A stretch of DNA of 64,000 nucleotides from Gnetum montanum (Eukaryota; Plantae; Gnetophyta), in assembly GCA_015680685.1 (NCBI GenBank), contig MNCI01002038.1, positions 553,950-617,949 of the forward strand, read 5' to 3'. Under the pieces are notes generated by a model, which saw nothing but the letters and a program-made list of their open reading frames with translations, did no database searches and was not told the origin of the DNA. This document shows positions 7,336-61,000 of this stretch, piece after piece; the first letter of the stretch is position 1, and every line of letters begins with the position of its first letter. Both the position numbers and the translations under genes were made by a program.

Positions 7336-10300
7336 ATGGCAAATCCTTGGTAAAAATTACATCATTAGGATTTCAAAACTACAATGATATTCCTAAGGTA
7401 GTTTACGAATATTTTCCTGAACCTTTTATTCATGGAAAAGCTTACTTAGTTGAAAAATACCTTCACATATTTGAGTTAGCTTTGGCTCATGCAAATATTC
7501 AACATCAAGATCAAGCTTGTAGATTGTTTGTAGTGAATTTAAAGGATATGGCTCAAATTTGGTATTCAAATTTGCCAAGTAATAGTATCACAAGTTGGGA
7601 TGATATGAAAAGTCTATTCCTATTCCATTTTAGTAATCAATTGGATCAACAACAACGATACTATGGGTTAGTACAAGGTAAGGAAGGAGTTAAAGAGTCA
7701 ATTAGAGACTTCAACATTAAGTTTCAACAAATTTGTGGAGTCTTTCAAAGACAATATGGACCATCATATGAAGTGCTTAGAGATACTTATCTTAAGGTTG
7801 TGAATCCCAATATTTCAATTTGGTTAAGAAGAACTCCAAACTTGATAACATTGAATGACTACTTTAGTGAGGCTATACAATTAAAAAAATAGTTGAACTT
7901 GAGCCATGAAGCAATTATCACAACTAAAAAAAGAGAAGAGAAAATGATGATTCCTATGCAAGATTTTGCTCAACTTAAAGCATTACTAGGACCATCTTGT
8001 ATTAAGACAGAGCAAGAGTTAGAAAGCAAAGATTCTAAAAAATGAGAGTTAATGAGAGACTTGTCCAACAAAGTACTGAAGCAAGAAAAAGCTTTAGCAA
8101 AAGTTAAAATTAATGAAGAAAAGAAAAATAGAAAACATAAACATCAAGATACTAAGTTAGCAGAAGATGAGGACAAATGTGATCTTATCATGTCATCCTT
8201 CCTTGATATTGAATTTGATGATGAGCTATCTAGTGTTCATTATGGAATCAAATCTTCTAACAATGGATCTAGTGATACTTCTTCTATATCAAGTTCTAAA
8301 GAAGATATATCATCAGATGAAGAGTGTAACAACAATGATGAAAATGGATATAATCTGCAATCAAAAGAAAGATTAACTACTTCTAAGCCTTTAAATGTCA
8401 TTTCTGACTTATCTACTGAGAGAAAGATTTTTGAATCAAGTAGAGGAGAGAAGAATAAAAGTAAAGAAGATCAAGTAGAGCAATGTACTCAGAATCAAAC
8501 TCTTAATAAATGGATGAAGAAACTAGGCTTTTATGGAGATGGAGAATATGATTTAATTCAATATCTTAAACATGTTAGGGCAAATATTAGTATATATTAT
8601 TTACTATAGATATGAGGTCAACAAAGAAAAGCTTTAGAGTTCATTAAAGGTAAGAAAAGAGTTGAAGAGTCAGAATTAAGTTATGTGTCCAATAATGACA
8701 AATTAACAAAGGCTAGCTATGATTGTACTCTTGATAAGGAAGATCCTCCTTTTCTTTTGATAATGAAGTTAAAGAACAAGTATCTTCACAATTGTTTGGT
8801 TGATTCCAGAGGTACATCTACTATTATGGCATTGTCTATAGGCAAAAAACTTGGTTTGATTCCCGAAAGATCAAATAAAGGATTGTTCAAGTGGATAAGA
8901 GTAGAGTGAAAATCATGGATCAATTACCAAATGTTCTATTAGAAATTTCTTCTAAACCTTGTATCAAAAGTAGAGTAACTATTCAAGTAGCAGCTATACT
9001 AGACTCACATAATCTTTTGTTGAGTAGAAGTTAGAGTGAAATTTCTCAAGTTAAGAAGAACTAAATCAAATATATATACAATGAACCTTTGATAAATTAA
9101 AACATTACTTCAAATGGAAAGAATAAAGTTGTTGAAACAAGAGCTTTTGAAACCAGAATTTGCACACTTCGGGAAGTTTATAATTTTGGAAAAAGAAGAA
9201 TTTCAAGATCAAAGAAAATGAAAACTATACTTTGATAATTTTTTTAATTCCAAAGGTGCAGGAGTTGGAGTAGTTCTAGTAAAAGATGATTTCACAAAAA
9301 TATTCAAGGTGATTCATTTATCTTTTCCTTGTACTAACAAAAAGGCTGAATATGAAGCTCATAATATTGGAATTAAAACAACATTGGAAAAAGAAATCAA
9401 GGTAATCACTATAAAAGAAGACTCAAGATTAGTCTATGAATAGATTAAAGGTAATTGTGTTGTAAAGAACTCATTCTTGTGATTCTATAAACAACTTGTC
9501 TACAAAATTCTAGATCAATTTCATCACTACCAAATAGAACATATAGGTAGAGAAGATAATTATATAGCAGATGACTTAGCAAAAGCAACTTCATCATTAA
9601 ATGTAAAAAGGATAGAAACTTATGAAGGTCTAATGATTGAGAATGAACATCAACCATAAATACCAAATAACATAAAGCATTTACAAGTATTTAAAGATGA
9701 TGATCAATTGCTTAGATTCTTAAGGAAAAAACAAGAATTTGAAGGTCAAATCATACATGAAATAGCATCAAGGTTTAAGACAAATTCCATTCCCAAAAGG
9801 ATCATTGAATATGAACATGAGTTTAGAAAAAATTTGCTTACTAAAAATGATATACAAAATCCAAATAATCAAGCTTATGAAGCAATGAATTTCAGATCTA
9901 CTGGGATACCAAAGATGTTAAATGTCACAAAGGAAAAATATTTAGTTTTCAAGAAAAATTTATTATTGCTCCTAAAAAATAATTTGGAAATTTTTGCTTG
10001 GTCCTATGATGATCTTAAAAATTTTAGACCAAATGTGATGACACATAAAATTCCTTTGATAAACAATTGTAAGGTAGTTAAAAAAATAAAGGAAATTTAA
10101 TCCATCATTTGAACCAGCTTTGGAAGCTGAGATCAAGAAGTTATTAAAAGCTTGAATCATATATCCTACCCGATATTCGACATGGCTTGCTAACCTTATG
10201 CGAGTAAGAAAAAATAATGGTGATATTAGGTTTTGTGTGGATTTTATAAATTTAAATGAAGCTTAGAAAAAGACAACTAACCACTTCCTAGAATTGATGA

Positions 10301-12142
10301 AATGTTGATCAAAGTATTAGGTTGTCAAGTATATTCTTTCTTAGATGGTTTTTTAGGATATAATCAAATCATGGTAGATAAGAGTGATAAATAGAGGATG
10401 ACATTTATCACTAAATGAGGAACTTTCACTTACCAAAGAATGCCATTTGGATCATCAAATGTCGAAGCTACTTTTCAAAGAGCAATGGATTTAACATTTA
10501 AAGGTTTAATAGGCAAGTTCATTGTGGTTTATTTGGATGATATCATTGTCTTCTCAAAAAGGAAGGAAGATCATATTGGTCATCTTCAACAAGTTTTTAA
10601 TAGATGTCATGAGTATGATATTTCATTAAATCCTAAGAAATGTATCTTTGGGGTTAAATTTGGAAGTTTACTAGGTCATGTAATCTATCAAAGAGGAATT
10701 GCTATAGATAAGTCTCAAATTCAAGTAGTACAAAATATCAAACATCCCACAAGTAAAAAGTCTCTTAGATCTTTCTTTGGAAAGATAAATTTTGTTAAGA
10801 AATTTATCATTAGATTCACTAAAATTACTAAACCTTTGATGCATATGTTAAAGAAACATGTTCTAGTAGAGAAATCACCATAATCGATCAAAAATTAAGA
10901 AAGCCGTTCAAGAAGCTCCTTACTTGGTAAAGCCAAAATGGAAAGAAGGCTTCTAGTTATATGCCTTTGCTTTAAATGATTCAATTACTACTATTTTAAC
11001 TCAAAAAGATGAAGGTTAAGATGAACCAATCAGATTTTTTGGATATTAATTGAAAGGTTCAGAATTAAATTATTTAGACTTAGAGAAACAAGCATTCACA
11101 GTTATTAAGGCACTTCAACATTTCAAGTATTATTTGGAAAGCTCATTAGTTCATATTATGCTAATTGAGCCTACATTAAAAATTCTTAGCCCAAAATGAA
11201 ATTGGATTAAAGAGAGGAAAGTGGCTCATAAAGCTTCAAGGTTTCACATTTTTATTGGAAATATGCAAAACCATAAAAGGAATAGAATTAGCCAAGTTAA
11301 TGGCTAAAGAAGATGAAGTATATGTGCTTAAGACTCATGAAGGAAATTGGTATGAAGACATTCTAGAATTCCTTGATACATGAAAGGTTCCTAATAACAC
11401 AACTGTAAGTCAAAAGAGAGCTTTCTTCAAGAAAGCAAACAAATTTGTGGTCAAAGATGGAATCTTATACAAAAATGATTTTAGAAGGATTTTGTTGGAA
11501 TGTGTTTATTATGATCAAATTGGTCCCATCTTCAAATATTTCCATAATCATTCTAATTTGTTCTATGAATATCCTAAGTCTACCATGCAACATATACTAC
11601 GCCCTAGTTATTATTGGCCGAGTATGTATCAAGACATTATTTTGAAAATTCAAAGATGTTACAAATGTCAAATTCATGGATCAAAAATTAAAAAAGCTAA
11701 AGCCCCCTTAAAACTAGTAATTGTGGATAGACCATTTTAGCAATGGGACTTAGATTTCATTGGTACAATTTCTCCTTCAAGAGTAGGACATAAATTTATT
11801 CTCACAGCTACTAATTACTTTACTAAATGGTCTAAAGAAAAGGTTCTAAGAAAAAGTTTAGCATCAGATATGATTAAGTTCTTACAAGATTAAATTTTAA
11901 GTCATTTTGTTTTACCTAAAGTGTTGGTATCTGATAATGGACCCACTCTTCAATTTGAAGAATTTACAACATGGGCATCAAAAAAATCCATCTTTCTATT
12001 TTTCTTGTTGAATGATTATCCTCAATATAATGGCTCTATTGAATCTATAAATAAAAAGCTTATTTCCTACATTAAAAATTCAATGGATGAAAATCCAAGA
12101 AATTGGATTGATTACTTGCAATCTACATTATGCATTGATTAG
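7336..12142 (+). mobile_element. Decayed Tat-type Ty3/gypsy polyprotein: gag-PR-aRH-RT-RH-INT, integrase C-terminus missing
   Basis: Gag 7347-7892 (CRLFVVNLKDMAQIWYSNLPSNSITSW); protease LHNCLVDSRG (~8785); archaeal-type RNase H ~9219-9585 (KLYFD, GAGVGVVL, CTNKKAEYEA, EDSRLV, DNYIADDLAK); RT MPFGSSN...VVYLDD (10440-10883); integrase YYWPSM, WDLDFIG, VSDNG (11345-12142). Confidence 0.88.
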
Positions 12143-13465: not shown

Positions 13466-14434
13466 TAGCCAATAGTTATATTTCTTACTAAAATTAAAGA
13501 TGAAATATTTAACTTGATTAATGCTAAAGCTCTAGGTTTTGATGAAATGTCCATTAATTTTTTTTAAAAGTCATTGGTATGTTGTTGGTAGAGACCTTTA
13601 TTGCATTTTTGTAAAAGCTATTAAACAATGGACTCTTGCTCAAGAGTTGAATAGAGTAGTCATTTGACTTATTCCTAAGGAAGTTGATCTTTTTTGCATT
13701 GGTAATTGATGCCCTATTACTCTTTTAAATTCTATTTTTTAAATTTTGACTAAATGTCTTCCTATAGGATTAAAACCAATTATTCCTTAATTAATTACTC
13801 AAGTGCAATATGCCTTTGTCAAAGGTAGATATATTCTAGATAATGTTGTTGCAGTTTGGAAGGGTATGTAGTGGGCTAAGTATTTCAATCAAGACATTGC
13901 TTGTTGAAGCTTGATTATGCTAATGTATATGATAAAACTGAATGGCAGTTTATTATTGCTTGTCTTTGCTACTATGATTTTAAAGAAAAATTTATTGGGA
14001 TGGTGGAGACTATTTTTGCATATAATAATGCACTTGTGGCTACAAATATTGGCATTACTAATATTTTTAAGCTTGAACACTCAATTAGATAAGGTTACCC
14101 TTTTATGTCTTATCTCTTCATCCTTATAGTAGATTTTTTATGTCATGATATAGAAAAGGACCAAGAACATAATTTTCTACAAGGCATCTTTGTTGAAAAT
14201 AATGTTCCTACTTTATTAAATATGCATGTTATAGATGAATCTTTTTAATGATAAAAATTGACAAAGTTATTTCACATTGTCTTTTTTATCATATTAATCA
14301 ATATTGCAGACTTTCAAGATCTCAAATTAATTTGTACAAATTTTCCATCTTTTGCAATAAAAAGGTTCAGAAATGGGCTTTATCCAAATCTTAGCATTCT
14401 ATGGAAAAGTTAGATGTTATTCAAATTCTATAGA

Positions 14435-15228
14435 TGATGGGACGTGATATTGCATGGGCCGCGATATCACATCCCCCATGATATCGCAGTCTGCCGCAAT
14501 GTCTATAAATAAGAAGCAGCTCTCCCTTGTTCATCATTAGGAGTTAGATTATAGCGAAGCTCTAGCAGTTTGATCCCTCCAGACATAGATTATTTTCCAG
14601 TGTCTGCCCGCAATGTGGTGAATGTAATTGTACAGCATCCTTTATTCGAGTGTGATGTACTTGGACACGCACATGACCAGCAATAAAGATCGAGATTACT
14701 TCATCATTGCAGCATTCACTTTGTTTATTTATTTAATTGTTATTTACTACTTTCCTAATTAGTCTCTCACCCTTATCTCCTAGAACACGGAATGAGTACA
14801 ACTTGATTACGAGCATTTAAGTGTGACTACTTGGTAGCCCAATGGCGTACCCGAGATCTGCGCTTGGTAATCCTAGTGGTAGTCGTGCACGAAGTCCAAG
14901 ATGTGTATGGATGATCAAGGAACGGAAGCTCATCGCACTTAGGCTAGATTAGATTCTCTTACCCTTTCCCTCCTAGCTTAGCTTAGTTAATATTATTTTC
15001 CATTGCCTTCAGAAGTAGCATTACATTAGGAAACCCATCATACACCTCACTCTGGACTAAACCATACATGACAAATATAATACTAGTCCAGGTGGGAGGA
15101 CAGCGAACTGCGACCTAAGGATAACTATCTAGGTGCCACAACTAGTCTATCTGTGGAGTTCGACCGGATCACGCATGAGAACGCTCGTATTCGTATGGTT
15201 GAGTGTAGGGGTACCTTGCCACTCATCA
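14435..15228 (+). repeat. 5' LTR
   Basis: Near-identical to 20038-20858 except for the 5' repeat array; TATAAATA at ~14504. Confidence 0.93.
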
Positions 15229-15229
15229 T

Positions 15230-15247
15230 TGGCGCCGTTGCTGGGGA
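15230..15247 (+). promoter_or_regulatory. Primer-binding site (tRNA-Asp type, typical of Athila)
   Basis: TGGCGCCGTTGCTGGGGA one base after the LTR's terminal CA; matches the Athila PBS consensus TGGCGCCGTTGCCGGGGA with one mismatch. Confidence 0.85.
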
Positions 15248-15599
15248 TGGTGCTAGTTATCTAGATTAGTTATATAATACAAGGTCGCTGTAAAGGACTT
15301 AATGATATATCTTTTAGAAAGAAATAATTATTAAAAGTCACATGTAAAATCACACACAAATTTCACAACCATGCCTCTCCTACAAGATTACAATAATGCC
15401 ACACTTAGTGAGGAAGTTCATTGGAGAACCAACGAATTATCTAACAATGAAGATTGGAGTACGCAATCCGAAGTGGGGGTTTCTTAGAAACAGAGACAAA
15501 GGCCACATCATCCCAACACACGAAGGCATAACTTACATGATGACGATGAACCCCTACTAGCCACTACAAGCCTAATGTAAATACAAGAGGCTCTTCGAA

Positions 15600-16700
15600 T
15601 CTCCCGTAGGCATCGTAAAGAGAGTTGCCTACCCAGGCTCGATTTAAACAACTTCCCTACTTTTTCAAGAGGCTATGACTTAGATCCGCATCAACATTTA
15701 CAAGCCTTCTGCGATGCTTGTACGTGGAACAACATTGATAACAGGTGGCAAAAACTCAAGCTCTTCCCTATGACACTTGTTGACCAAGCAAAAGTATGGT
15801 ATAGATCATTAAAACCAAATTCAATACAACGCTGGTCAACAATGGTAGAAGTTTTTAATGAAAAATATCAAACCTACGCACGAGTGTCAGCCTTGAGGAA
15901 ACAAATCCAAGGATGGAAACAAGCACAACATGAACCCTTGGACATGGCCTTAGAAAGATATTATGCACTATTAAACAACTGTCCAGGCCATGGGTTTTTC
16001 GAGGAAAGGCTAATGTACCATATCATTGATGGGCTACGTAATGAAACAAGAGAGACCTTAGGAATGTATGCCCAAGGTCAACTATATGAACTACGAACCC
16101 ATCAAGTCCAAGAGCTTATTAAGCGGGTAGCAAAAGAAGAAGGAGAATTAGCTAGATGGGAGAGTGTTGAAAAACATCAACGGGACCAAAATCTCAAATT
16201 AATAAAGGTCCATGATCATAAAAAGCAGAAATCAACAAATCTCAAGGTGGAAACATCATCTTTGCCAATACAACAAACATTAGAAGAAGTCAAGGCAAAG
16301 ATCAATAAGATGTTGGAATGGATGAATCAAAGTGTGGAGAATATATCAACAACATTGGAGATAGAGTTCTGACAACCTAAGAAGTAGGACGGAATAGTAG
16401 ACAATCGGAAAGAAGGGATAAGGAAAATAAGAGCTCAACTGCCAATCATACATATGAATGTAACATATGCCTGTATGATCACCCCAAAGGCCAATGCCCA
16501 ATCTTGTTACATTTACATGAGCATTGGGAAAATCGTTACATCTAGAGTTCGTACAAAGATACTGTGTTTGATCACAGTGGCAACAATCCCAGTCGTGGGG
16601 GAGACCACCCTTAGACTGGAGGCACCCTTCATATCATCCGAATCCAAATGCTTATCTTGTTCAACATCCTATTTCTTCAACTGAGCCAACATACTTTATC
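15600..16700 (+). pseudogene. Retrotransposon gag (Retrotrans_gag-like) with stops
   Basis: LPTF..DPHQHLQAF..KLKLFPMTLVDQAKVWYRSLKPNSIQRW (ORF 15770-16372); Cys/His motif CNIC..HP..CP at ~16455. Confidence 0.85.
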
Positions 16701-19321
16701 TCACCACAGTACCATTCTCCTTAATACTATCAACCCATGCCTCCAACATAACCACCACCTTGCGCACCTTATACTCCTCCTAACTTTCAACTTTCTCATC
16801 CTTTCCCTCCTTATACATCACCACCAACTATTCCTAAGGTGCCTGCACCACCACAACAACTCACAAACAACACTTGTGCTACTACTACTAACAGCAATGC
16901 AAAGCCTCCTCAACATCAAAAGCGTCCTTTCTTTAAACACGGCCGTAAGAAGGGACAACACAATTTTGAGGCCACTGCATCTTCCAACCNNNNNNNNNNN
17001 NNNNNNNNNNNNNNNNNNNNNNNNNNNNNNNNNNNNNNNNNNNNNNNNNNNNNNNNNNNNNNNNNNNNNNNNNNNNNNNNNNNNNNNNNNNNNNNNNNNN
17101 NNNNNNNNNNNNNNNNNNNNNNNNNNNNNNNNNNNNNNNNNNNNNNNNNNNNNNNNNNNNNNNNNNNNNNNNNNNNNNNNNNNNNNNNNNNNNNNNNNNN
17201 NNNNNNNNNNNNNNNNNNNNNNNNNNNNNNNNNNNNNNNNNNNNNNNNNNNNNNNNNNNNNNNNNNNNNNNNNNNNNNNNNNNNNNNNNNNNNNNNNNNN
17301 AATCCTTGCATACCATCTAATGGTCCCAAATATCATAGTGGGTCAACTCATTATCCAGGAACTACATTGTATAAATTACCCCACTATGCTCATTATAATC
17401 AAGTGTGTGAAACCCGATGGGGTAAATATGACCAAGCCAAAATACTTCCAACATGCAAGGATCTCCGTCTTCCATTTATTAATCCTTACCATACTCAACC
17501 GCTTAGTTATGGGGGATATCCCCCATTCTAAATAATAAGCAAGATTAATAAATATTTTTCATTTTCTTTAATTTTTCAATTTTTTTTCTAGTTTTTCATT
17601 TTTCAACTTTTTATTTTATCTTTTTATCTTTTTGTGTTTTTGTGTTTTTGTCTTTTTACGTTTTTGTAANNNNNNNNNNNNNNNNNNNNNNNNNNNNNNN
17701 NNNNNNNNNNNNNNNNNNNNNNNNNNNNNNNNNNNNNNNNNNNNNNNNNNNNNNNNNNNNNNNNNNNNNNNNNNNNNNNNNNNNNNNNNNACATCAAGGG
17801 GACTTGCGGATTCTCTTTAGTGACGACTGTGGGTGTTATCATGCAACGTGGTTATACTAAGATCCTTGTAGATCTAATGAAAAATGGGAGTAAGAGTAAT
17901 CAAAAGGGCACTCGAAAATAAAACGTTATTCTAGGGGGTCCCACTGGAAAGACATGCACTCATGCCTGAAGGTTGGCGGCTTCTCTGGATTCAGTAAAGT
18001 GAAAAAAAGAAAAAAAAAAGAAAAAGAAAAAACAAAGTGCCCTAAAACAAAAGTCACTCCTCCCTTGAATAAAATGCCAAGTGATCGTATGCCTTGTTGT
18101 TATGGTACTCTCATAGTCGCTCATCATGGGATGAAACAATGCGATGTCACTGATTAGAGGAATGGACTTGGTCCTGATCTTGGAATGATGGGGTAATGAC
18201 ACCTTAATCATGTTTTACACGTAAGATTCATTATGCCCTGGGTCAGTTACCTCATGTCCCGATCTCTACAATCCCTTTCTATACTTTGCCTCATCTCATT
18301 TTTCATGTAATTGTAGCTCATGTCCCATGTAGCATAGAATTTTTCTCTCATTCTAGTGATATTTACATGTGTGTGTTCTGTGGAGTTAGTGCTGATTACA
18401 TTTAACCCTTCTAGTGCCCACGGACACTTTAAGTGTGGTTACACAAGGGCAATATAGGTTGGAACCTTTTTTGGGGAGGACCCACTTGTGTAATCTCTTG
18501 TGATTCTCACTTATGACATCGCTCACACACACCATTTACCCTCAGCATAATTTTTAAAATAATTTTCTTTCCCTTATTATTATCCCTCTAAATTTTAATG
18601 CTCCAATGTACTATTACATACCCTTTTTCTTACCACCCAAGATTTAATTAGTTAAAATCCACACCATCACCATTAATGGTGCCTTTGAATTAATGAAATT
18701 GCCCTAGAACATCTTGATCATAGTCAATGTCCTCAATTCAAATGTTAATTTCAAAATAACCCTTAAAAAAATTCGGTACATTCTCTAAGTGCCCTAACTT
18801 CAATGAAAATATATATACGTGACCCCCCTTATGCTAATCAACATCATTTGCAATTGTTCACGTAGGGGAAGTTTTTCAATTCCTCTCTACGACTTGTGAT
18901 TGCGCATCCCTTGCTTTCATATCCATCATGTGCTCGCTGATACTCTGATTTTCATTCCATTTGAACCTACTTGAACCTGGAGTGTTCAGCTTAGTTGTGG
19001 GGGAGGGGCACATGCCGAATAGGGCATATAGTGCATAAATTTTTTGAAATTCATCATCACCCGAAGGATATATTTAAGGGTAATTAGTCATAGAATTAAG
19101 AATAGCATGTGTCAAAAACTATTTCATCCCCTTAGCTATACCAGAAAATTAAATTTGGAAACCACCTAAGCAAAGAGGACTCAACACTATAATCTTTCAA
19201 GGACATGTCCTTCCAATAATTAACATCACATGGAAATAAAGTAAATCTATTAAGGCAAGCAGTAAGGTATAACCTAACTTTGGTAACAACCTTACTAACA
19301 ATTAGTTCTGTGTGATTGCAG

Positions 19322-19909
19322 ATGGCCCTGAAACGCGGACAACAGGAAGGTCCTGCTTAAGGTGCGATCAAATGACCTAAGAGAGGTGAAGGACAAGTTC
19401 CTACCAAAAAAATGTAGAGTAGGAGGAACAATCATTTAGTATCCACCAAGAAGACCTTGTTGCTGTACAATCAAGGACTACCCTCTCTAAAAGCGGTGAC
19501 TGGTACTTAGGGGAAACATACCAATTTTGACACCACGATTAACAATTGTGGTGTGACTGTTGATTTTTCTGTTCAAGCCATTTCGGAAGTATTAAACCTT
19601 CCGAATACAGGGCCAAAGGTTACTCAAAACCAGCTGGACACTTTCAGAACTGAGCAACTTAATAAACTGTTGACAGAGAATAAAAGGGTGGTAGAAGAAA
19701 AAGAGAAGGCTGACCAGGATGCCTCTATGGCACAAGTGCAAAATTACATGCATGCCAAGGCACTCAAGGCCTTACTAGAGGAGAAACTCCAGGCCATACT
19801 TCAACGCCATCAAGTCCCAAGACTTGGAGCACAAGAAAAAGGGAAAGACACCCATGGAGGAGCCACCACCACTAGGAACTACATGAGTTCCAAATTTTTG
19901 TCGTTGTAG
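19322..19909 (+). pseudogene. Athila env-like/extra 3' ORF remnant
   Basis: Starts MALKRGQQEGP directly after TACTAAC...TGCAG. Contains GVTVDFSVQAISEVLNLPNTG and a coiled-coil-like tail. Lies between gag and the PPT. Confidence 0.6.
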
Positions 19910-20037
19910 CATTTTTCTATGTTGTGTCTTCCCACACTGCGGCATTGTCCCATTTCTTTTTCCATCAATAATCCCATACCTATCCACTGTGTAATCACTA
20001 TAACTCAAGGATGAGTTTTTATTCAGTCGTGGGGGTA

Positions 20038-20858
20038 TGATGGGCCGCGATATCGTGTACGCGATATCACGTCTGCCACGATATCGCATCCCTCGTGATA
20101 TCGCGTACGTGATATCATAGTCCGCCACAATGTCTATAAATAAGAAGCGACTCTCCCTTGTTCATCATTAGGAGTTAGATTGTAGTGAAGCTCTAGCAGT
20201 TTGATCCCTCTAGACATAGATTATTTTCTAGTGCCTGCCCACAGTGTGGTGAATGTAATTGTACAACATCCTTTATTCGAGTGTGATGTACTTGGACACG
20301 CACATGACCAGCAATAAAGATCGAGATTACTTCATCATTGCAGCATTCACTTTGTTTATTTATTTAATTGTTATTTACTACTTTCCTAATTAGTCTCTCA
20401 CCCTTATCCCCTAGAACACGGAATGGGTACGACTTGATTATGAGCATTTAAGTGTGACTACTTGGTAGCCTAGTGGCGTACCTGGGATCTGTGCTTGGTA
20501 ATCCCAGTGGTAGTCGTGCACGAAGTCCAAGATGTGTATGGATGATCAAGGAATGGATGCTCATCGCATGTAGGCTAGATTAGATTCTCTTACCCTTTCC
20601 CTCCTAGCTTAGCTTAGTTAATATTATTTTCCATTGCCTTCAGGAGTAGCATTACATTAGGAAACCCATCATACACCTCACTCTAGACTAAACCATACAT
20701 GACAAATATAATACTAGTCCAGGTGGGAAGACAACGAACTGCAACCTAAGGATAACTGTCTAGGTGCACAACTAGTCCATCTACAGAGTTCGACCGGATC
20801 ACATGTGAGAACACTCGTATTCGTATGGTTGAGTGTAGGGGTACCTCGCCACTCATCA
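20038..20858 (+). repeat. 3' LTR
   Basis: Direct repeat of 14435-15228, preceded by the PPT and followed by TSD ATAGA. Confidence 0.93.
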
Positions 20859-21699
20859 ATAGAAAACTTTATGGAATGTTATAGAGAAGAAAATTAAACA
20901 AAAACTTAATAAGTGGAAGGATAAGAAGCTTTTAATGGTTGGTAAGTTTATTGTGTGTAAGCATATTATTCAAGCTACTCATGTGTATTATTCATCATGT
21001 GGGGCCCTTAGTATTTTTGCATATCATTACATTGATAAGCTTGTGCAAAATTTCCTTTGGAGTAGTAGCCATTCTAGAAAAAGATTTTGTTATGTTGCAT
21101 GGGATATTTGCACTTTTCACAAAGAGGATAGTGGATTAGGATTGGTAAATTATTATAAGTGTAGTATTATTTTATGTATCAAGTGGATGGTTAAACGCTT
21201 ATATATTAAAAAGCCTTAGAAGCTTCTTTTTGATAAGCGCATTTAGATGGATAAGCCTAGAGATAGTGATTACAAAAAAGATATTAATTTCTTTAATTGG
21301 ATCCTTTTCCAAAAGGTATTACTATATTAGGTTTTATTGTCATAAAGCACATTTGGAAGACTTGGAGTTTTATTAGTGAGTTTTGGAACTTTAATTAATA
21401 ATATTAATGTTTCTACCTCTATGTTTGATAAGATTTCTCCTTAGTGGCTTCTCATTAATAATGAACCATGGGCTATTAAGCATCCAATTCTTTGTAGTAC
21501 ATGGTGAAAGTTTGGCATTTATTTCCTCTTATCTCTTTGCACACATAATTGCTGGATTACTTGGTCTAAATGTCAAAGTTTCTAAGGCACTAATGTTTCT
21601 AAAAAGTCTATATTTTTTGCTCTTTTGCATTTTTTGGACAACAGTGTAAGTATTCAAGATTTTCATAATTGTTTTCTTAAATTTTCTTGGATTAATGAT

Positions 21700-22584
21700 T
21701 GATGAGTCATGTTTTGCAGGGCTACAATATCAAATATCCAATATCAGGGCCACAATTTCGAGTATTCGATATCGAGGCACGACCTTCGATGTTGGATATC
21801 TGATATTGCCCCTCTCATGGTAACCTATAAATACCACACTTGGGTGCATGGTTGGGAGATAGATTTAAGAGAGCTTTTTCATAGATTTCAGAGTAGTTAG
21901 AATTTTGTTAGTTTGTTTTCTAGTGCATGCCCAAAGTGTGATGCTAAGTGATTGTACAACATCCTTATTCAAGTGTGACGTTCTTGGATGTGCTACATGA
22001 TCGACAATAAAGATTGAGATTACTTTCCTTACTACAGCATCCACTTAGATTTATTATTATTTTTAATCATTTAATTGTTTACTATTTCCTTAGTTAATGT
22101 TTCCATTTATTGCTTTTTATTATTCCTTCCATTAAGTGAAATGAGTATGACTAATTGTAAGTGCTTAATTATAATTACTTGGTAACCTAGTAATGTATCA
22201 TTTGATAAGCCCAATGACGTATGCTTGGTAATCCCAGCAATAGTTATGTGAAGTCCAAGGCATGTACAGATGGTTAGGAACGGATACTCATTACATGTAG
22301 GCTAGTTTAGACTTTACTTTCCATTGTTAATTGGATTAAACAATTAACTTCTTTATTGTCATTAGGAGTAGTTTAGGGTTAGACAACATCAATCATCAAA
22401 TGCCTCACTTTGGACTAAACCATATGTGATAAAGCTACCACTAGTCCAAGTGGGAAGATAGCAAACCATAATCAAGCATAGCGATTTAGATGCACAACTA
22501 GTCCCATCCACGGAATTCAACCGGATCATGTGTGAATGCTTGTGATTCGTATGGTTGGGCGTAGGGATACCTTGCTACTCATTA
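21700..22584 (+). mobile_element. Solo LTR, older relative of the Athila-like LTR, inserted in the L1
   Basis: TGATGAGT...ACTCATTA ends; flanks ATGAT/ATGAC (TSD with one mismatch). Internal blocks are shared with 14435-15228 (CAATAAAGAT.GAGATTACTT; GGACTAAACCATA; CGTATGGTTG). Confidence 0.85.
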
Positions 22585-23955: not shown

Positions 23956-25213
23956 CTAAGTGGAAGGAAAATAAGCTATCTATGGCTGGTAAATTTATTG
24001 TTTGCAAGCATATTCTCCAAGCTACCCATGTGTATTACTCTTCTTGTTGGGCTTCTAGCATCTCTGCTTATCGTCGCATTGATCAACTAGTCAAACACTT
24101 TCTTTGGAACAACAGCCATACTAAGAAAGGATTTTGTCGGGTTGCTTGGAACGTCTGTACTTCTTATAAAGAGGACAGCGGTTTGGGCCTCATTGATTGC
24201 TACAAACAGAGCATTGTGTTATGTGCCAAATGGATGGCCAAATGCTTATCTGGCTCTGAACCTTAGAAGCTTCTTTTCCTTAAACGCATACAGCTTGGAA
24301 AGCCCGAAGGTAGTAATTATTGGAATAATACTCATTTCCTTAACTGGATTCTTTTTCCCACTGGTATTACCATTTCTGGTTCTGTTGTCATCAAATACAT
24401 TTGGAAGGCATGGTGTTATCTTAGTCAGTTTTGGAACTTTAACACTATCACTATTTCTTCCTCTACACTTGATAAGCTTTCTCCTTGGTGGATTCCCATT
24501 CACAATGAACCTTGGGCCATTAAGCGTCCTCGTCTATGTAGCACTTGGGATAAGCTTGGCATCTCCTCCCTCTCATCTCTTCGCATTCATAATCGTTGGA
24601 TTACTTGGACTGAATGTCACCTTATTTACGGCTGCTCAAAAGTCTACCTTTTGTACGATTTTGGATACCTTGAACAAAAGTGTTGTTATTCAAGACTCCC
24701 TTGGTAGTTTTTTAGATCTTTCTTNTTGTCCCCTTGCTCATAGCTCTTGGATTTGGTGTGGCAGGTTTTTACAGGGTTTCGACCAAGCTTGGATGAGGTT
24801 CTTTTTGGTGTTCAAGGCTCTTTGATTTATATCTGGTGTCGCCTTCGTCCCCTTATTCTCCATGCTATCTGGAAATTTCATTGTAATGTGGTTTTTCAAC
24901 GTGATTTTCCTACTAATATTCTCTCCTTATCTATTCAAGAAGACATTGTTCAACAGCTAATGTTGCAGTTGAGCTCTTGAACTTTTTCTCTCCCGTTTTT
25001 CTAATTTGTTGAACTCTTGAACTTTTTCTCTCCCGTTTTTCCTAATTTGTTGTAGTTTCTCCTCTTTTGAGGTGAGCTTTTCCCCTTTGCTGTTATTCTT
25101 TGAGACCTCTTCATCTTTTTTGACCCTCTCTTTTATCCCCTTTGTACTATTTTCTTTTTTCTCTATTTATTAAATTTATTTTTTGGGGTCCGACCCCCCC
25201 CCCCCTCCCCCCC
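23956..25213 (+). mobile_element. 5'-truncated L1 copy (same family as 20864-23380)
   Basis: KWKENKLSMAGKFIVCKHILQATHVYYSSCW..HFLW..VAWNVC is colinear with 20910-21690. T-rich 3' UTR ends TTTTTGGGGTCCGACCCCC. Confidence 0.85.
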
Positions 25214-39583: not shown

Positions 39584-40134
39584 CAAATGGCCAAAGAAGC
39601 CTTATTACAAAGTGTTGGTTGCTCCTCACATTATCCAGTAACTAGCACTGCATAGCATGAAGAGTTCTTCGTTTAACAAGCATGTCATTGCCCTTTCAAT
39701 AGCCATGAAGTCAACACTTGAAATTCCTTGTTAACCCCTTGATAACCAATATAACCTTTATCTCATCCTAAGCTCTCAACATCCTATCGTGATCTTATCT
39801 CACCACTATGATCACTCCTTGGCATGGTTTGAAAGCTACAAAATTAAGTGTGGAGGGGAAGCGTTGGTGATGCAGTCGTGATGGGTTTCGCATTCTTTGT
39901 TGATGTCTCTCGGCTCAATTCTCAAAACATCAACAAAGAGGGGCCAATGAAACACCTCAAGGAAAATTTGCAAATTTTGCATGATAAGCCTTAATAGCCA
40001 AATTTGCAATGTAATTAATGGGAATTAAAAGGCAAAAACAATTGCTTGTTTTACCCATCAAAAAATCCCATCCAATAGCCTTGTTTTAGCTAAGGTTCTA
40101 GCAATATTTAATGTGTAAAATGAAATTTGCAGCA

Positions 40135-40417
40135 TATAAGTTGTAAATGTCATTTAAGCTAGCTTATAAGCTATAAATGTCATTCAAGATTAGCTTATAA
40201 GCTATAAAGCTTATAAGTTGTAAATGTCACTTAAGCTAGCTTATAAGCTGTAAATGTAACTTAAGCTAGCTTATAAGTTGTAAATGTAATTTATAAGCTG
40301 TAAATGTAACTTAAGCTAGCTTATAAGCTGTAAATGTAATTTAAGCTAGCTTATAAGCTGTAAACGTCATTTAAGCTAGCTTATAAGCTGTAAGTCCCAC
40401 TTAAGCTAGCTTATAAG
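40135..40417. repeat. ~30-bp tandem array (TTAAGCTAGCTTATAAGCTGTAAATGTMAY), ~9 units, within the LTR
   Basis: Directly visible units containing overlapping palindromes TAAGCTAGCTTA and AGCTTATAAGCT. Confidence 0.92.
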
Positions 40418-41813
40418 AGCCTTGAAATGTAAATATGCTACATAGGTAGCAAAAGTCTCTTATGCTAGTGCCCCTTATGTTGGAATTTTGGGCAGTGAAA
40501 ATGTTAAATATGCTAGCATTTTAAGCCTAAAAGCCAAATACATTGGCTTATAAAATGCATATTTACATTATGCACAACTTGTAATGCTCATATGAGTATA
40601 TGAAACTATAACTGATGCAGATCACAACTTATTTAAGCTAGATTTGCAGCTGCTTTTAGGACTTTTTGCAGATCAAATTCCTAGAGAGAAACAACAAAGC
40701 AGAGTTTTAGATTACGTAGTCTTTCCAACACCATTTTTAGTGTAGATCTCTCCCAAGAGCAAGCCCAAGTGCAAGTGCAAGATACTCTCTACCACCTACA
40801 ACAGATTCCCAAGGATATTTGCTTATTTCGGGCTTCTCTGAAGCCTCCAATTTGTATCTTCTAAATTTGTACTCCCACAGTGTTCTCCCTTTTTTTATTA
40901 CATTAATACAAAGTTTGCAGTTCATGCTTTACTTGTATTTAATGTTTATTCACTATACTCTTGTGATCTGTCTTTAAGTCTTGCATGTTGTAGTTTTATT
41001 TCCCCGTTTTCATTAAATACACTCATTACAGATTTTTAAGTCCCTAAACGATCTACTGGACCATTTAGGGTGCTCCAAATCCTTTTTTGAGGCCCATAGA
41101 ATTCAGAGTTAAACTGGTTCACGCTAGGATCTTCGGTTTTCTAGCACCGAATTTTTTAGGCCTTATAACACACATCTATCACTCAAAAAACATGCTTGCT
41201 AACACACTAGCTACTTTTGCTCTCCTTGCCAATCCTACTTTCCTCAAGGATCATATATCTCATTCAATGCAAGATACACCTATTACACTTATGGGTATAC
41301 AATGCATTGGATTAATAAACTTAGAGTAAGATGAACAATACCATGATATTATACAATACCTGCAAACTGGAGAAACTCCTGAACATCGATCTTACTCATA
41401 AAAGGATACTCTCTGTAAGCATTCTACACATTTTTGTATTGTTGATCCTGGTATGTTATGTCGCATCTCCACATCAAACGTTCTTCTACACTGTCTAAGT
41501 CATGACGAAGCACAAAATGTGTTGGAACAAGTTCATTCTGGCATATGTGGAGGTTATTTAAGCTCATGGTCTCTAGTAGCTCATATCATTTCATTAGGTT
41601 ACTAGTGGCCTATGATGTCTAGGAATGCACATGATAGCTAAGATTCGTGATACATGTCAACATCAAGTTTCATGTATTTATGTTCTATCTCAAGGGTCGA
41701 TGACCTCTGAAATTGTATGGCCTTTCCAGAAATGGGAGCTGGATCTCATAGGTTCTATCAATTCTCCATCTTCTTCTAGTCATCAATTTATTGTAATAGC
41801 TATTGAATATATG

Positions 41814-44800
41814 TTTTTTTAGAGAATGTTAGGGATTAAATTACTAATAATAAAAAAGAAAAAAGTACAATCCAAGGCCACGAGTGAATGGTCAAACGGA
41901 CCCACCCTCAGGGAGGGGGAAACAATGCCACCTCGACACCCTACAAGTAAACCCCCCAACCCTAGCCCCACTACACGCTCCCCCCCACCCCTCGGGACCC
42001 AGCCTCCTCACCCTTATGAACTAGACACGCACTGCACACAAAACAAAGGCCAACCCGGCCAAATAGGAACTTTGACCAAAACCCATCCTCATCCACAAGA
42101 AATAGACCTAAGCACAGAAGGGGCCTAGGTAGCCTTGGAGCCGTTATAGTTGTTTGGGTAGGCTGTGACACTTGCACTGCAGCTGCTCGAGAGCATGTAG
42201 GATATCCAGCATATTACGATGTAGCTCAGAACCCACGAAACCAATGGCTTGCTAGAACTCCTGCAAGACAGCCTCACGACAAACCCCTTCCCTAGCCAAC
42301 CCCCCACCATTCAGATGGAAATGTGCAGAGGTACGGCGAATGTGCTGCCTTAGGGCCACCCATGAGCACTCATAGTTTATGCCCAGCATGACATAAGGGC
42401 ATCGCCCCTTTCAAAGCCACTGTTGCACACTCTACTCGTGCACCCTATCTAGCTAGTGTTGTCTTTGCCTCTCCTCTTCTTGCTCTTGAGCTCATTGCGT
42501 GCGCTCCATTTGCTCCCTTTCCCTTCGAGTAATTTCTTCTTGCTGTACCTTCGCTCAAACTTGGTCGTAGAGTTCATCCACTAGTCAAGCCGGGGATCCC
42601 TTCGTCAGCAGGGCCTACTTCCTAAGCAGCTCTTGCTCCCACTTGCGAAATCAGGCCTCCATGTCGGCCTGTGCTTGCTGGAGAGCCTCCTCCCATTGGG
42701 TCTCCCAACCCTGCTATTCCTCGGCCCGAGTCATCACCGCTGCCTTCTCTGTGACCCTATCAAGCTTCGCGACCAACAACACATCCCAACCAGCCATCGT
42801 GGATGGAAATGCGTCCACCACAACCATTGGAGTCGTAGCAGCCATCCCCCACTGTGCGACCTGCTTTCTAGAGTAGACCACCGTAGGTGTCAAAGCAACC
42901 CCAACTAGGAAGGTCTAGGGGGACCCAATGTCGACTGCACCTCCATTGCACCCTGCCAAAGGGCCATCATCAACTAGAAGTGGCACCCCCTCTTCTGCTG
43001 TCGTAGCACAACCAAGAAAAAGTGGGGCAAGTTGACTTTGAGCCCAAATTTTAAGCATTTCATGAATGCAAAGTGTGTGCCTTGAAGCTTGGAACCATTG
43101 CCAAACTGGACAAAAAATCGATCAACTAGCTTAGCAGCCCATCCCCAAATCAGCGGTAGAGTAGACTTGGGCACTTGCCAACTTTGCGTGCGTGGAACTG
43201 GTCCATCAAAGAGCAGCTCAGCATCCTCTAACCGTTAGGCTATGGGAAGAATAATTTCACCATCTTCCTGGGCCCCTAGGTACCTAGCGATCATCATCTC
43301 TATCAGCATGATTTCCACACCCTGAAATTCCATCTTATCGGCTAGCCAGTTGGTGAAGAAGGCACCATTAGGGAGGGTCAAGTCACCTTGCAATCGTGGA
43401 AGGAGAGTATCCCATCCACATTGCTTGACTAGACCCTAGGGCTCAATGTGCGCATGGAATGCCACGCAAGCCAGCTCGTATGTTAGCGTGACCCCCATTG
43501 CAGTAACAATTTCCGCTTATGCTTTCTCCATTTGGAAAACAACATGCACAAGGACAGGCACACATTGTTGTCGGAAGATTTTGTGGTTATGTATCTTCCA
43601 CACCTCCCATAAAAGCAATGTGGCCTTAGAGTCTCCCGTGAGTAGCGTCAAGGCAACCCATCCTGTCGCTTACCACATGTCCTACATGTAAGGGCATTGG
43701 AACACGAAGTGTAGCATAGTCTCAGGCCCACCATTGTAGAGGGGGCATGTGGCATCAATGTTGAGGTTGCGTTGCATTAAAGACGCTTGTACTGGTAGGG
43801 CATTACTCTCGAAGAGCCAAAGGAAAACCTTTATTTTCTCTAGCAGTCTCCCCCGCCAGACCTACTGCCAACCATGTACTAGTGGGTACATCGATTTCAT
43901 GAGCTGGCGCAACATCTGTCCCATCCACCCCTGTGCTAGCATGCACTATGCATGGGCCCAAAGCGTCCGCTAGGGTCTAGAGTTGCATGCCTCCATTTGC
44001 CACCTGTCATATTTCCCTCGCATGATGCGAATCCACTTCGTAGTCCCTTCGCCTCTCTAGGTAAACTGTGACAATAGCCACTGCTGTCCCATTGTTAGCT
44101 TGTCCTCGAATTTGAAAACACCTGGGCTCCTTGCTTCCCTAGGGCACACAGTCTGGTCCCAGCCAACCAAATGTAATTTATATCCCCCCTCTACCCCCTG
44201 ACCACACAAAATTTGAATGAGTTGATTGACAACCTTGATCACGACTTGCAGGGGATTTGCAACAGCAGCCACACAGCGTGCCATCGCCACGAGCACCTCA
44301 AACACCAGCACCAACTGCCCTTTCTTGGTGAGAAAGTGGTTAGCCCAATGTCCCACCTGACCCTCAATTTTTTTCAAAACTACGTTCCAAGCCGTGCATC
44401 GTCCCCAAGCAAAAAGCGGGATACCAAGGTACGAGTCTTGGGCCATCCCTAGGGGGAACCCCCAGCACTTGCATGATCCAACATTTAACTTGCCTATCCA
44501 CATTGAGAAAGTTCACCAAGTACTTCTCCCAATTCACCACTAGGCCAAGCTCATCTGCCATCGATGTAAGCACCCGATTAATAAGTCACGCCTGGGGGAC
44601 CCCAGTTTGACTAAGAAGCATTATGTCATCAGCGTAATGTTCGACAAGACATTCAACGCCTGCAACCATCAACTCCCCCACCCTTGCAGCCTTACAATAG
44701 TATTTTAGTAGGTCCATGCGATGATAAAAAGCAATGATGATAGAGAGTCCCCCTGCCTCAGACCTCTTCTAGGAGACAAGAAACCCCAGAGACGACCCCT

Positions 44801-45331
44801 CATGTTGAAGGAGAATGGGTCTGATGCTTGCAAATGAACGCACAGTTGCATGAATTTAGGGTCAAAACCTTTCTGCACCATAATGGTGGCGAGTGCCTCC
44901 CAAGTAACCGTGTCATAGGCCTTCGTAATGTCTAGTTTTAGACACAATCTAGGGAATTTGGAGAGGCGTAGAGGGTGGAGGATATCTTGCATTAGAAGGA
45001 CGTGGTCTTGCAGGAACCACCCTTGAACAAACCCCACCTGATGTTCCTTGACAAGTTTTGGCATGATGGGGACCAACCGTTGAACGAGTAGCTTAGAAAA
45101 TATTTGGATCAACACATTGTAGACCCCAATGGGTTGAAAATGAGCGGGAGATGAGGCATCGGCCCACTTGGGGATACTGACAATCCTTGAGAAATTGATC
45201 TCTTGACGTACCTGACGCTGGGCCAGCATTAGGTTGAAAGCGTCGAGAACATTGGGCCTGACAATATTGAAAAATTCCTTAAAGAACTTGACGTTCCAGC
45301 CATCAGGCCCCGACACTGTACCTCCCAGCAT
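41814..45331 (-). mobile_element. GC-rich, 5'-truncated L1-clade LINE with long C-terminal ORF2 extension
   Basis: SGPDG, LKLDITKAYDTV, GLRQGDSLS (44705-45331); HYADD ~44630; YLGIPL; zf-RVT KIKVFLW..CP..ET..H..QC (43690-43850); W..W..N..IF; short poly(A) (T run at 41814-41820). Confidence 0.9.
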
Positions 45332-47189
45332 AGAACTGTAACTAAGTGGGTTGAAGTTATTTCTTTAAGAACTGTAACTTCTAAGTATGTTTGTCATTTT
45401 ATTTTGGATCATACAATCACTCACTTTGGTATTCCTCTTTACATCGTAATTGATAATGGACCTCAATTCAAGAGTAAAGAACTAGCCAAATTTTATCATC
45501 AATAACAAATTACCTAGTCATTCTCATCTCCGTATTACCCGCAATCCATTAGGCAAGCTAAATCAACTAACTAATCCCTCATTTGTTTGCTAAGAACCAT
45601 GGATTACAAATCCCAACACAACTGGCATACTTGGTTATCCCACGCTCTTTGGGTCTATTGTACTATCTTCCAAATAGCAACTAATTGAACCCTTTTATGC
45701 TTTCCTATGAATCAGAAGCTATGTTACCGGTCAAGGTGGACGTGCCTTCTCTTTGTGCAGCCCTGAACAATTGGATGACAAATGAGGAAAATGATATCAT
45801 TTATTGTGTTGAGTTGGAAACACTTGTGAAAAATTGCAAGCAACTAGCAATCAATATCCAAAATTTTCAAGAAGCCATGCACCATCGCCATGAAAAGCAT
45901 GTTAGACTTAGAGACATCAAGGAAGGTGACTTTGTTCTTAGGCATTTTCCTAATGCCAAGATGACTAAGTTCTCACCAAACTAGCAATGTCCCTTTGTTG
46001 TCATCAAGAGCCTTGGCAACAAAGCATATTATTTAGCTGATTTAGATGGGAATCAATATTCAGATTTGGTAAACAGGGCATACATCAAATGATGCTACAT
46101 TTGAGGTTTTTTTAAAAAAAGAGAAAGATCAAGCGTCATCAGGTTTGCTCTAACTCTTCTCCCATCTCATCAACATTTTATTGCACTATTTTTTCTCCCC
46201 TTCCTATGTCATTTTTCCTCTCTCTTTCTCTCTATTTTTTGCTGTTTTTGTTCTATCTTTTTCATTGAGTTTCATGTACCTCCCCCAATCTCTTTCTATC
46301 CCATTCTACTAACTTTCTTCTGCAGCATACTATGGTGAAGATATTAATCAGCAATCTACCTCATGCAATGAGCAATTGGTGTTTTGCCATTTTTAACTCC
46401 ATGTAAGGGTGTGTTGAGTTTGAGTGGGATAGGGAGGGAATCAAATCTATGAAGCATCAATAATCATTAGAGTGTGGGATTTAGCCATGCCTCACTTTTG
46501 TGACATAGCACCCTGTCCTTGTGTATAGATGATGTCCCTAATTTCTTTTTTTAGTTTGATTGTTTTCTTGATTTCACAAGTCTATTATTTACCTTTCACA
46601 GGTCTATCTTTTACCTCTCCTCTCTTACTTCTCTCTCTTCCTTCTAGCTCCCTTTCCTGTCTCATTCCCTTCCTGTCATCAACATATTTAGTGAGAATTA
46701 AACAATTTGTTCTATTCCAGTAACGGTAGGTTGAGGGCATGAGTAGGACAGGGTGTGAATATCATAAATGACATCTTTTTCACCATCTTGAATATAGGAT
46801 TTAGCCACACCCCTTTCTATGGTGTAGTGCCGTCCTCATGACTAGTGTATTGGTGATATCCTAATATTCTTCCCTCTTCTACTTCATTCTTCCTACTTTT
46901 TCTTTTATATGTACATTAATTCAGCATCTAATCTCTTCTTGATGAACCCTTATTTGATACCTTAACAGCATCCATCAAGAGGGAGCAATGTTGTACCCAT
47001 TTTTTTTTATTCATTTTGAATCAAACGTAATTGTGGTTTCAATATCATTCCATGAGTATTTGAAAACCAAATCCCTGAAATACACCATTACAAGGCACAT
47101 TCTTATCTCCTATGGACCATCAAGAATCATCTGGGTTCATAATTCAACTTATGACTTAATTTTCTATGATCCCCAAAAAACTCTGAAGT

Positions 47190-58058: not shown

Positions 58059-61000
58059 CATCATCATCATCATCCTAGCCTTGTCCCAACAAAATGGGGT
58101 CGACTACATGAGTTCTTTTTCACCATTTACCTCTATGAAGAGCTAAGTCTTTATTTAATTGTAGTTTCTTCAAATCATTTTCAATCATTTTTTTCTGTCT
58201 TCTTTGGTCTTCCTTTCGATGGCTTTCCTGAAATAGTGGTATAGCAAGCTTTGTTTATTGGTTCATTGTATGATCTCCTTTGCACATGTCCACACTATCT
58301 AAGTTGCCATGCTTGTTGCTTATTTGAAATAAAAGCCATTATAAGTCTTCCTCTGATGTCTATATTATGTAGTTTATCTCTTCTAGTAACATTCAACATC
58401 TATCGAGAAGATGGAATTTCCTCCAATTGCTTGGGCATTGGGAATTTTGGGAAGCAAACCTTTTGGTGAAAGATCTTTCAGTAGGACAAGCTCATCACAA
58501 AATGATTGGGGAAGTTTTTTTTTTTTTGAAGTAGTTGCCCTGTTATGTTGAGGTTCAAGGGTGCATGTAAAGGATTAGTTTAGTAGGAGGCAATGGAGAA
58601 TTTCCTCGACCTTTCATGATGATAATAGACATGGCCAATTCACTAGAATTCTTAACATCCTTAAAAAACATAGTACCTCCTCCCTAAAAAAATCAACTCA
58701 TGAAGATACCTTTCATTTTGCTTCAACAAATGATACCTTTCATTTTGCTTCAACAAACCACAAATAGTGAATCTCATATCTTTATATATAATCCTTTACT
58801 AAAGTGAGGGGATGGAATTTTATTTGGGGGATGCATTGTTGACCAAAGGGAAGGTTTCATGCTTAGTTGTTGACTCATCATGTAGAGCTCACTCAAGATA
58901 AATTCTAGTAATAGGGTTTTGCCATGGCCTCCTACTATATCCTTTGCTATAAGATGACTGAAATTGCTACATACCTTTTCAAGGAATATTTGTTTACAAA
59001 GGCTATGAGTTTATTCATGTGCATGTGGACTAGGATCCTATGGGATCAATATTAGGTAATGATTACAAAAGGGTCCATCATGCAAACACACTTGCATGAG
59101 ATTTCATTATGGGTGAATGTTGCCTGGGAGATTTTTCTTGAGTGGAATGGTTGCACTTTTCATGCAAAGTGCCTAAACTCTCCCTATAAATGCATCTCAA
59201 AAGCATTCGCCAACTTTCACTTATGGGAAAACATTCATGAATGTTCAATGATAATGTTCAATACTCACGACTCCTTGTGAAATGAGTCAACATGGTACTC
59301 ATAAATTATGTGCTCCTCTACTTTTCTAGACATGCATACCCTATGCTAAATGAACTTTATGATGTTGTGCATGAATATCTTTTGATTGTTGGTTTCAATG
59401 CCTTATAGAAATGCCTAGAAATTTTTGATTAACTGGAAACAGGGTTGGGATTCTCTTCCCCCATAGCTGATGCATGATCCTTCTAATGGTTTGATTCCTA
59501 GTTAGCTTCATGATCTAAGTGTTCATCTGTGTGTTTGGAGGATTTTTTTTCCCTCCATGATGATATTGCTATTGTAATTTCTGATTTTGGATTTTCCCCT
59601 CTTGTTATATAAAAGACTAGACTTTCCTTCAAAAAACATTCAACATACATCAAAGCATATACATTTATGCCACATTGATTTATTGTTCATGCCTCTTTTG
59701 TATAGTCCAGCATTGAACACCATATAAGATAGCAAGCATGATTGTTGTCCTATAAGATTTTTCTTTCAATTTTATTAGTATTCTTTTATCACATAGAACA
59801 CCACTAGAGTATCTCCATTTTTTAACTATCCTGCCTCAATTCTATTTCTTATATCTTTATCAGCTTTGTCATTTGATTGGAGGATTAATCCTAAGTAGAG
59901 TAATTGTTTACAATGAGGAACTTTTTTTCCTTGAATTATCACCTCTATTTCACTAATGTTTATGTTGTTATTAAAATTAGAGTTCATACATTTTGTCTTA
60001 CTTCTACTAATTTTTAAGCTTTTTGATTCTAAAGCATGTCTCTATTTCTCCATTTTAGAAGTAATATTTTGATGAGTTGTATCCACCAACATAATATCAT
60101 CTACAAATAGCATACACCAAGGGATTTCATCTCGTATTTCTTTTGTTAATTTATCCATAATAATGGCAAATAAGTACAGGCTAAGTTCAAACCCTTGATG
60201 TAGACCTATTGTAACTGAAAAATTAGATGTTGTTCCATAATTTGTTCTAATTTTAGTGGTAGCTCCTTCATACATGTCTTGAAGTAGTTTAATATATTTA
60301 TTAGAGATGTTTTTCCTCTTCAAGGCCCATGATATAATGTCTTTAGGTACTCTATCATAAGCTTCTTCCAAGTCAATGAAGATTATATGTAGATTTTTCC
60401 TATGTTTTTTAAATTTCTTCATCAATTTTTGTATTAAGAAAATAGCCTCTATAATAGATCTCCCTTGCATAAATCCAAATTGATTTTTTGATACTATTGA
60501 TTCAATTCTAAAATACTACTCTATAACTCTCTACCAAAGCTTCATAATATGATTCACAAGCCTGATCGCTCTATAGTTTGCACAATTTTGTACATCTCCT
60601 TTATTTTTGTAAATGGGAACAACAAAGCTTTTTCTCCAATTGTTGGGCACTTTTCCATTGTTCAAAATTTTGTTAAATAATTGTGTCAATCAAGAAACTC
60701 TTATCTCTACAAATACTTTCCAAGATTCTATAGGAATGTCATTTAGTCCAACAACTTTTCCATTTTGCATCTTTGATAATGTTATATTCTCCCAAGAGGA
60801 TGAAAGCTTATTAACCAAACCAGAATTTGGTTCTTCTTCTTGGATGTCTTCTCTTGGGAGTTCTTCATTTACTAATTCTTGAAAGCAAATTTTGCACCTA
60901 TTCAAAATTTCATTGTCTTTTACTAAATTGTTTTCATTTGCTTTCTTGATACATTGGACATGATCAATGTCCTTACATTTCTTGTTTATATTTTTCTACT

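Follow-up and report, generated by a model that had tools for sequence, protein, structure and literature searches.

A plant L1 retrotransposon carrying a domain related to LTR-element extra ORFs behind its reverse transcriptase and zinc finger

The window, a stretch of 64,000 nucleotides from Gnetum montanum, contains a minus-strand L1 element in which the reverse transcriptase (RT) and CCHC finger are followed by a domain homologous to the extra ORFs (eORFs) of LTR retrotransposons. The domain sits at the RNase H site, shares the ORF2 frame, recurs in several divergent copies and was retrotransposed within the element. The reading preferred here, with a probability of about 0.55, is that the element is a degenerate member of a plant L1 family with an LTR-derived extra-ORF domain that would be translated with ORF2 and act as a nuclear DNA or chromatin binder of the PMD/VANC kind.

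Results

Structure and boundaries of the L1 element

The components of the element are given in Table 1. A non-LTR RT followed by zf-RVT in ORF2 is the arrangement of the L1 clade; by three-frame translation, the remaining RT runs across frameshifts to ~44500. Contigs representing the empty site, with 41810 joined to 45341, were found in all four public DNA runs (4, 8, 1 and 2 contigs, 80% likeness), so all 3530 bp, the extension among them, form a single insertion. This agrees with an earlier sequence-only reading, which had placed the extension inside the element and 5′ of the poly(A), here seven A. Where the two flanks meet in the empty-site form there is a short T/A run, and no clear target-site duplication was seen. 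The L1 minus strand (45340–41811) is 50% GC and the repeat-rich surroundings are 33–34% GC. The stop codon at 42110–42108 differs in some other copies, and the true stop codon of the family may possibly be another. Over the putative coiled-coil segment, Pfam gave only non-significant coiled-coil-type rows.

The sequence that received the insertion (41500–41810 and 45341–45700) is also a repeat of high copy number, for which many contigs show the empty site. At the 5′ junction of the L1 lies an 11-nt word that is found again ~32 nt upstream.

Table 1. Components of the L1 element, in window coordinates
Feature	Position	Strand	Basis and remarks
5′-truncated L1 insertion, 3530 bp	41811..45340	-	inside another repeat; contigs joining 41810 to 45341
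RT, N-terminal two thirds	44705..45340	-	RVT_1, E 4.6e-14; three-frame translation
zf-RVT, CCHC-type finger, decayed	43673..43900	-	PF13966, E 8.7e-15; residues 108–183 of P0001
Ordinary L1 ORF2 tail, W..W..N..IF region	43499..43672	-	stop at 43519–43517 in this copy
Captured Transposase_32/Athila-type extra-ORF domain (putative), 172 codons	42983..43498	-	ORF2 frame; hhalign, HMM, shuffle controls, alignment
Linker in second frame	42735..42982	-	codon-position bias; 1 stop in 86 codons vs 5 and 5
E/Q/R-rich predicted coiled coil	42420..42734	-	from composition
C-terminal segment of tail frame	42108..42419	-	without detected homolog
G-rich 3′ UTR and 7-A tail (41821–41815)	41815..42107	-	

Reading frame of the extension and tail

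The peptides quoted in the earlier reading were all found in the translated minus strand, and the zf-RVT frame continues past the finger without a frameshift, as it had stated. Between 43858 and 42900 the only stops in this frame are TAA and TAG (43684, 43672, 43519, 43438, 43237, 42976 and 42907); their compatibility with C>T or G>A decay had been offered as evidence, but this is true of any stop codon and carries no weight. Over 43435–42990, the zinc-finger frame holds one stop in 148 codons, where the other two frames hold 14 and 9, and one stop or fewer was obtained in 0.3% of 5000 base shuffles. The codon-position bias shifts to the second frame near 42990–42970, which moves the frame change upstream of the ~42900 first proposed. 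In the contigs of some other copies, +1 and −1 indels (net zero) occur at 42972/42980.

Over 42990–42110, the tail frame holds 12 stops (in 286 codons) and the other frames 13 and 12. Since it is no more open than these, the case for its coding status is compositional: E, Q, R and K reach 0.65 per 40 codons. On this basis the tail frame is taken as putatively coding, with stops that may have arisen by decay of Q, R and W codons. The proposed continuation into a coiled coil is matched by the E/Q/R-rich composition but not by the openness of the frame.

Relationship to the extra ORFs of LTR elements

No direct match of the extension or its halves to PF20167, PF03078 or PMD was obtained in Pfam, the check by which homology to Transposase_32 or Athila ORFs was to be established. 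No RNase H family was found in Pfam at E ≤ 10, as anticipated. Three word-seeded protein searches with the extension (552, 113 and 1280 candidates) gave nothing significant; the search of 1280 candidates missed zf-RVT relatives too, so such searches are insensitive here. PDB sequence searches gave nothing under E 0.67. A phmmer search over 1.84 billion representative proteins returned a single match, the 5241-aa repeat protein P0004, which was rejected because its score was built up from 21 stretches, none above 1.8 bits. A likeness of PxGLVK to the start of RNase H was set aside, since this part of the extension aligns with the eORF family.

A relationship was found through an intermediate family. 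Metagenome contigs were scanned with a short motif presumed to be typical of plant LTR extra ORFs, yielding 41 loci, several of them redundant. With phmmer the extension found 28 of these 41 segments, the highest score being 28.6 bits. An HMM was built from 22 segments after removal of seven with upstream frameshifts, those shorter than 170 residues and duplicates; its positions 6–182 of 200 aligned to residues 237–410 of P0001, the extension scoring 25.7 bits. Of 2000 shuffles, 1317 scored, at most 7.3, and the reversed sequence gave −3.2. Because the motif had been chosen for its likeness, the N-terminal half, which lies outside it, was scored separately; it reached 6.2 bits, and none of 1000 shuffles exceeded 3.3. 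When 858 six-frame chunks of the window were ranked with the HMM, the two best were the extension.

Comparison of the extension with 11 family members by hhalign gave 91.7% (E 7.8e-7) over 172 columns from Met242; protein identities are 17–24%. The homologous domain runs from the ATG at 43498 to about 42983, replacing the earlier placement of its start at 43560 or at GLVK. Seven of ten family member ORFs matched PF20167 (Transposase_32) with E values from 1e-4 to 3e-3 and scores that all fell short of the 45-bit cut-off, and Atlas placed the domain of locus L016 with Transposase_32 (0.93, 175 features) and the ATHILA clusters (0.92). These comparisons support a distant relationship between the extension and the extra-ORF domain of Transposase_32/Athila type in LTR elements, so that the homology first proposed stands by way of the intermediate family and not as a direct profile match.

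A query of zinc finger plus extension found no locus in the metagenomes, and an L1 RT query none in viral contigs. Among the 46 metagenome and viral loci no L1 RT was found; one zf-like match lay 7.7 kb from the motif in L011. Loci L001–L005, from viral contigs, were uninformative for the extension.

The LTR-element relatives

Of 46 neighbouring ORFs, 18 were scanned, belonging to 13 loci. Ty3/gypsy pol domains were present at nine loci, upstream on the same strand at eight and on the opposite strand at one (L006); terminal repeats were seen at L016 and L020. No RVT_3 match was found in the scanned pol ORFs, which by the criterion given in PMC6317226 suggests Athila rather than Tat. In these relatives the domain forms the N-terminus of a separate ORF of 980–1340 aa, about 0.9–1.1 kb behind pol. 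The L1 tail matched neither the eORF tails nor an HMM of their C-terminal domain, so that the coiled-coil tail, which the earlier reading had described as fused along with the domain, has no detectable homology there.

The long LTR eORFs (L016 at 9900–10865, L015, L017, L020, L030, L031 and L033) contain a second conserved C-terminal domain of ~250–300 aa, with a motif common to seven distinct sequences and no Pfam match in the four long ORFs scanned. At L006 (2826–3257, −) the domain follows directly downstream of RT-RH-INT but in antisense orientation, as an antisense eORF or a nested insertion; the eight others are sense. An intact 297-aa ORF with the domain stands alone in 16 kb at L038/L042 (7649–8539, −) and L014, with no other ORF of at least 170 aa and no long direct repeat nearby; it is possibly non-autonomous or domesticated.

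Fusion with ORF2 and other copies of the family

The ATG at 43498 aligned with the Met-Gly that begins the LTR eORFs. In this copy a stop (43519–43517) stands six sense codons ahead of it. Positions 43517 and 43518 differ from this copy in ~90–100% of the aligned depth in all four runs (7–8, 14–15, 11 and 2 contigs), so most copies read through the upstream stop. The domain of this copy has two internal stops (43438 and 43237); the first, a TAG, cuts it 20 codons in, which favours decay, although this position is absent from the 40 of 1874 variant rows listed.

Among the 32 matches listed, X5 record 10 spans 43257–43629 with 71 differences and no gap, X1 record 4 spans 43247–43600 with 53 differences and 8 gap letters, and a third copy bridges the junction with 103 letters for 101 within the domain; none of those listed runs from the RT to the domain. 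Copies ~19% apart remain colinear across the junction, and the extension occurs in several divergent copies of this L1 family. Contig depth, which is not copy number, was 314–1427 over the C-terminal half of the domain, 170–1209 over the RT and 3–37 over the linker. The high depth over the C-terminal half fits constraint, and other elements could contribute to it.

It is highly probable that the domain is present family-wide. The domain is also probably fused to ORF2 as one protein, though with less assurance. The in-frame fusion first proposed therefore holds as likely for the domain but not for continuity into the coiled coil, given the frame change near 42980.

Predicted structure and membrane segments

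A single-sequence AlphaFold model (pLDDT 35) was discarded and Foldseek was run on a better model. No match at E ≤ 0.001 was obtained in the PDB and viral libraries, nor by a second look at those chains with VIA. The sole whole-domain structural match, a weak one, was VANC21, a DNA-binding anti-silencing protein. No sequence or profile match of the extension to PMD or DUF1985/VANC was found in Pfam and PDB sequence searches, and no tandem motif array as a VANC target was seen in the window. The suggestion of an anti-silencing or chromatin role thus keeps one weak structural match and lacks a PMD or DUF1985 counterpart in sequence. In 19-residue Kyte–Doolittle windows, the maximum was 1.16 in the domain and 1.44 in the tail, and none exceeded 1.44 in three long LTR eORFs; no segment of transmembrane strength was present in the extension or LTR eORFs, which gives no support to the membrane sense of ‘env-like’. 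The domain likely acts on DNA or chromatin rather than membranes.

Other elements in the window

An Athila 3′ ORF of the window had been said to match the extension. In the ORF at 19511–19909 (+), only 25 residues remain of the domain, and a coiled-coil-like run comes after them. BLAST did not align this ORF with the extension, hhalign to the family gave 15.5% (E 0.0017), and the Atlas value to Transposase_32 (0.83) is a lead only. The claim was accordingly narrowed to the remnant. The LTR element holding this ORF (14479–20739) has gag at 15581–16372 and 95% identical repeats; no pol was seen, and assembly gaps lie inside it.

Two L1 fragments (20910–21700 and 23957–25000, +) are AT-rich, 73–77% alike and of another family without the extra domain. 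The latter ends ~30 codons past W..W..N..VF, and neither scores with the domain profile. Further non-LTR RT fragments lie at 60042–60776 (−) and at 13560–14125 (+), the second near the right LTR of a Gypsy element. A 30-bp tandem array of ~7 copies occupies 40104–40430.

Discussion

The domain was likely captured from a Ty3/gypsy LTR element, the direction presumably being from LTR element to LINE. In an ancestral L1, the end of ORF2 would have been joined to an LTR extra ORF at its start codon, a junction suggested by the family's Met-Gly start having been kept, and its own stop would have been lost. Once the ORF2 particle reaches the nucleus, the domain might bind DNA or chromatin, which is the least certain step, with the downstream coiled coil probably serving as an oligomerisation arm. 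The bound domain could shield new or existing copies from silencing, or steer insertion sites. A bolder version, which we regard as less likely than not, is that the L1 welded an LTR-derived anti-silencing DNA-binding module of VANC/PMD fold to its RT, and that the ‘env-like’ Transposase_32/Athila ORFs are not envelopes but members of the PMD/VANC superfamily that counter silencing and have been exchanged between DNA transposons, LTR elements and LINEs.

A rather unlikely alternative is that the domain is a functional separate protein, an L1 ‘ORF3’ made from its own ATG on a spliced or internally initiated RNA, or by read-through or a programmed frameshift, which only looks fused by being in frame. 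The retained Met-Gly start would suit this, as would the TAG at 43438, the change of frame near 42980 and the distinct ORF that the domain forms behind pol in LTR elements. In SIRE1 a single stop is read through, which is a precedent. Spliced env-like messages have been reported for Bagy2 (PMC7264820). The junction, however, lacks a spacer: the ATG comes six sense codons after the last L1-type position, compared with about 0.9–1.1 kb behind pol in LTR elements. The upstream stop is absent from most copies, the 43438 stop would cut the domain 20 residues in, and internal initiation could coexist with fusion. Somewhat less probable still is a capture and fusion as proposed with a role other than DNA binding, such as RNA binding, particle assembly or host-protein scaffolding via the coiled coil. 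The function of the domain family is given as not known in the available parts of PMC11728184 and PMC6317226, Athila-domain proteins are predicted to form coiled-coil pentamers with many host contacts (PMC13547354), and the VANC21 match is weak; yet that match is the only one over the whole domain, and nuclear localisation has been predicted for a sunflower Athila aORF that contains the domain (PMC11728184).

There is little to recommend a neutral passenger, a piece of LTR eORF gained long ago by one L1 lineage through 3′ transduction or template switching and kept without function. This copy is indeed broken and its tail is rich in stops, but the domain is complete from Met to last helix with motif spacing kept at ~20% protein identity, stop-prone codons were converted at 0.10 in the domain vs 0.17 in the zinc-finger region, and divergent copies are colinear across the junction. 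Least probable of all is a true envelope-like membrane or fusion protein for cell-to-cell movement of the LINE: the homologous 3′ ORFs were historically called env-like, but the hydrophobicity values, the lack of a viral fold match and the position at the C-terminus of a nuclear-acting enzyme all stand against it. If a LINE has kept the domain beside its RT, the domain must be of use even where LTRs, particles, integrase and a membrane anchor are lacking, which speaks against its old interpretation as an envelope; together with the weak VANC21 match, this offers a test of the role of plant ‘env-like’ ORFs, through DNA binding and family-specific relief of silencing.

Comparison with known systems

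In the literature search, no title or abstract start described a LINE with this domain, and prior cataloguing in Repbase or Dfam is possible; one supplement of PMC5203782 searched for ATHILA or PMD gave no match. In the available portions of PMC5203782, PMC5348765, PMC11728184, PMC11963269, PMC9289625, PMC5408684, PMC6317226 and PMC7264820, the ORF2 of plant L1s either stops at the zinc finger or has a C-terminal RNase H in addition, and Athila-type extra ORFs are described only from LTR elements. Ta11-type plant and oomycete L1s carry an archaeal-like RNase H after the CCHC finger (Smyshlyaev 2013, via PMC5348765 and PMC5203782). The present element resembles them in having an extra C-terminal ORF2 domain downstream of the finger; unlike Ta11-type L1s, it has no RNase H there, but a relative of the LTR extra ORFs without a known catalytic role, the region aligning lengthwise to the eORF family.

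The Athila-type 3′ extra ORF (PF20167, related PF03078; PMC11728184, PMC6317226) is similar over the 172-column N-terminal domain, in its Met-Gly start and in a low-complexity linker with a coiled-coil-like region. In Ty3/gypsy elements it stands as an ORF of its own between pol and the 3′ LTR, which is true of the relatives found here and not of the L1 copy, where the domain, at 17–24% identity, lies in the ORF2 frame of a non-LTR element and is followed by a much shorter tail not detectably homologous to theirs. VANC of VANDAL transposons and the PMD proteins (MAIN/MAIL1; PMD-CC eORFs of Tat/Ogre) are, like the L1 domain, TE-encoded accessory domains, VANC21 being its weak fold match; eORFs that combine PMD with a coiled coil are known (PMC4408406). 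VANC, in contrast, is made as a free protein that works in trans through tandem motifs (PMC6719617), and the L1 domain has neither a sequence or Pfam match to PMD or DUF1985 nor such an array. The ORF3s of bdelloid LTR elements (GDSL esterase, DEDDy nuclease) also occur in non-LTR and Penelope-like elements (PMC5408684), an accessory module common to LTR and non-LTR retroelements as here; those are other domains, in animals, present as separate ORFs or in ORF1 and not as ORF2-end fusions. Set beside these systems, the element is a real new plant L1 variant, a LINE with an LTR extra-ORF domain behind its RT and finger.
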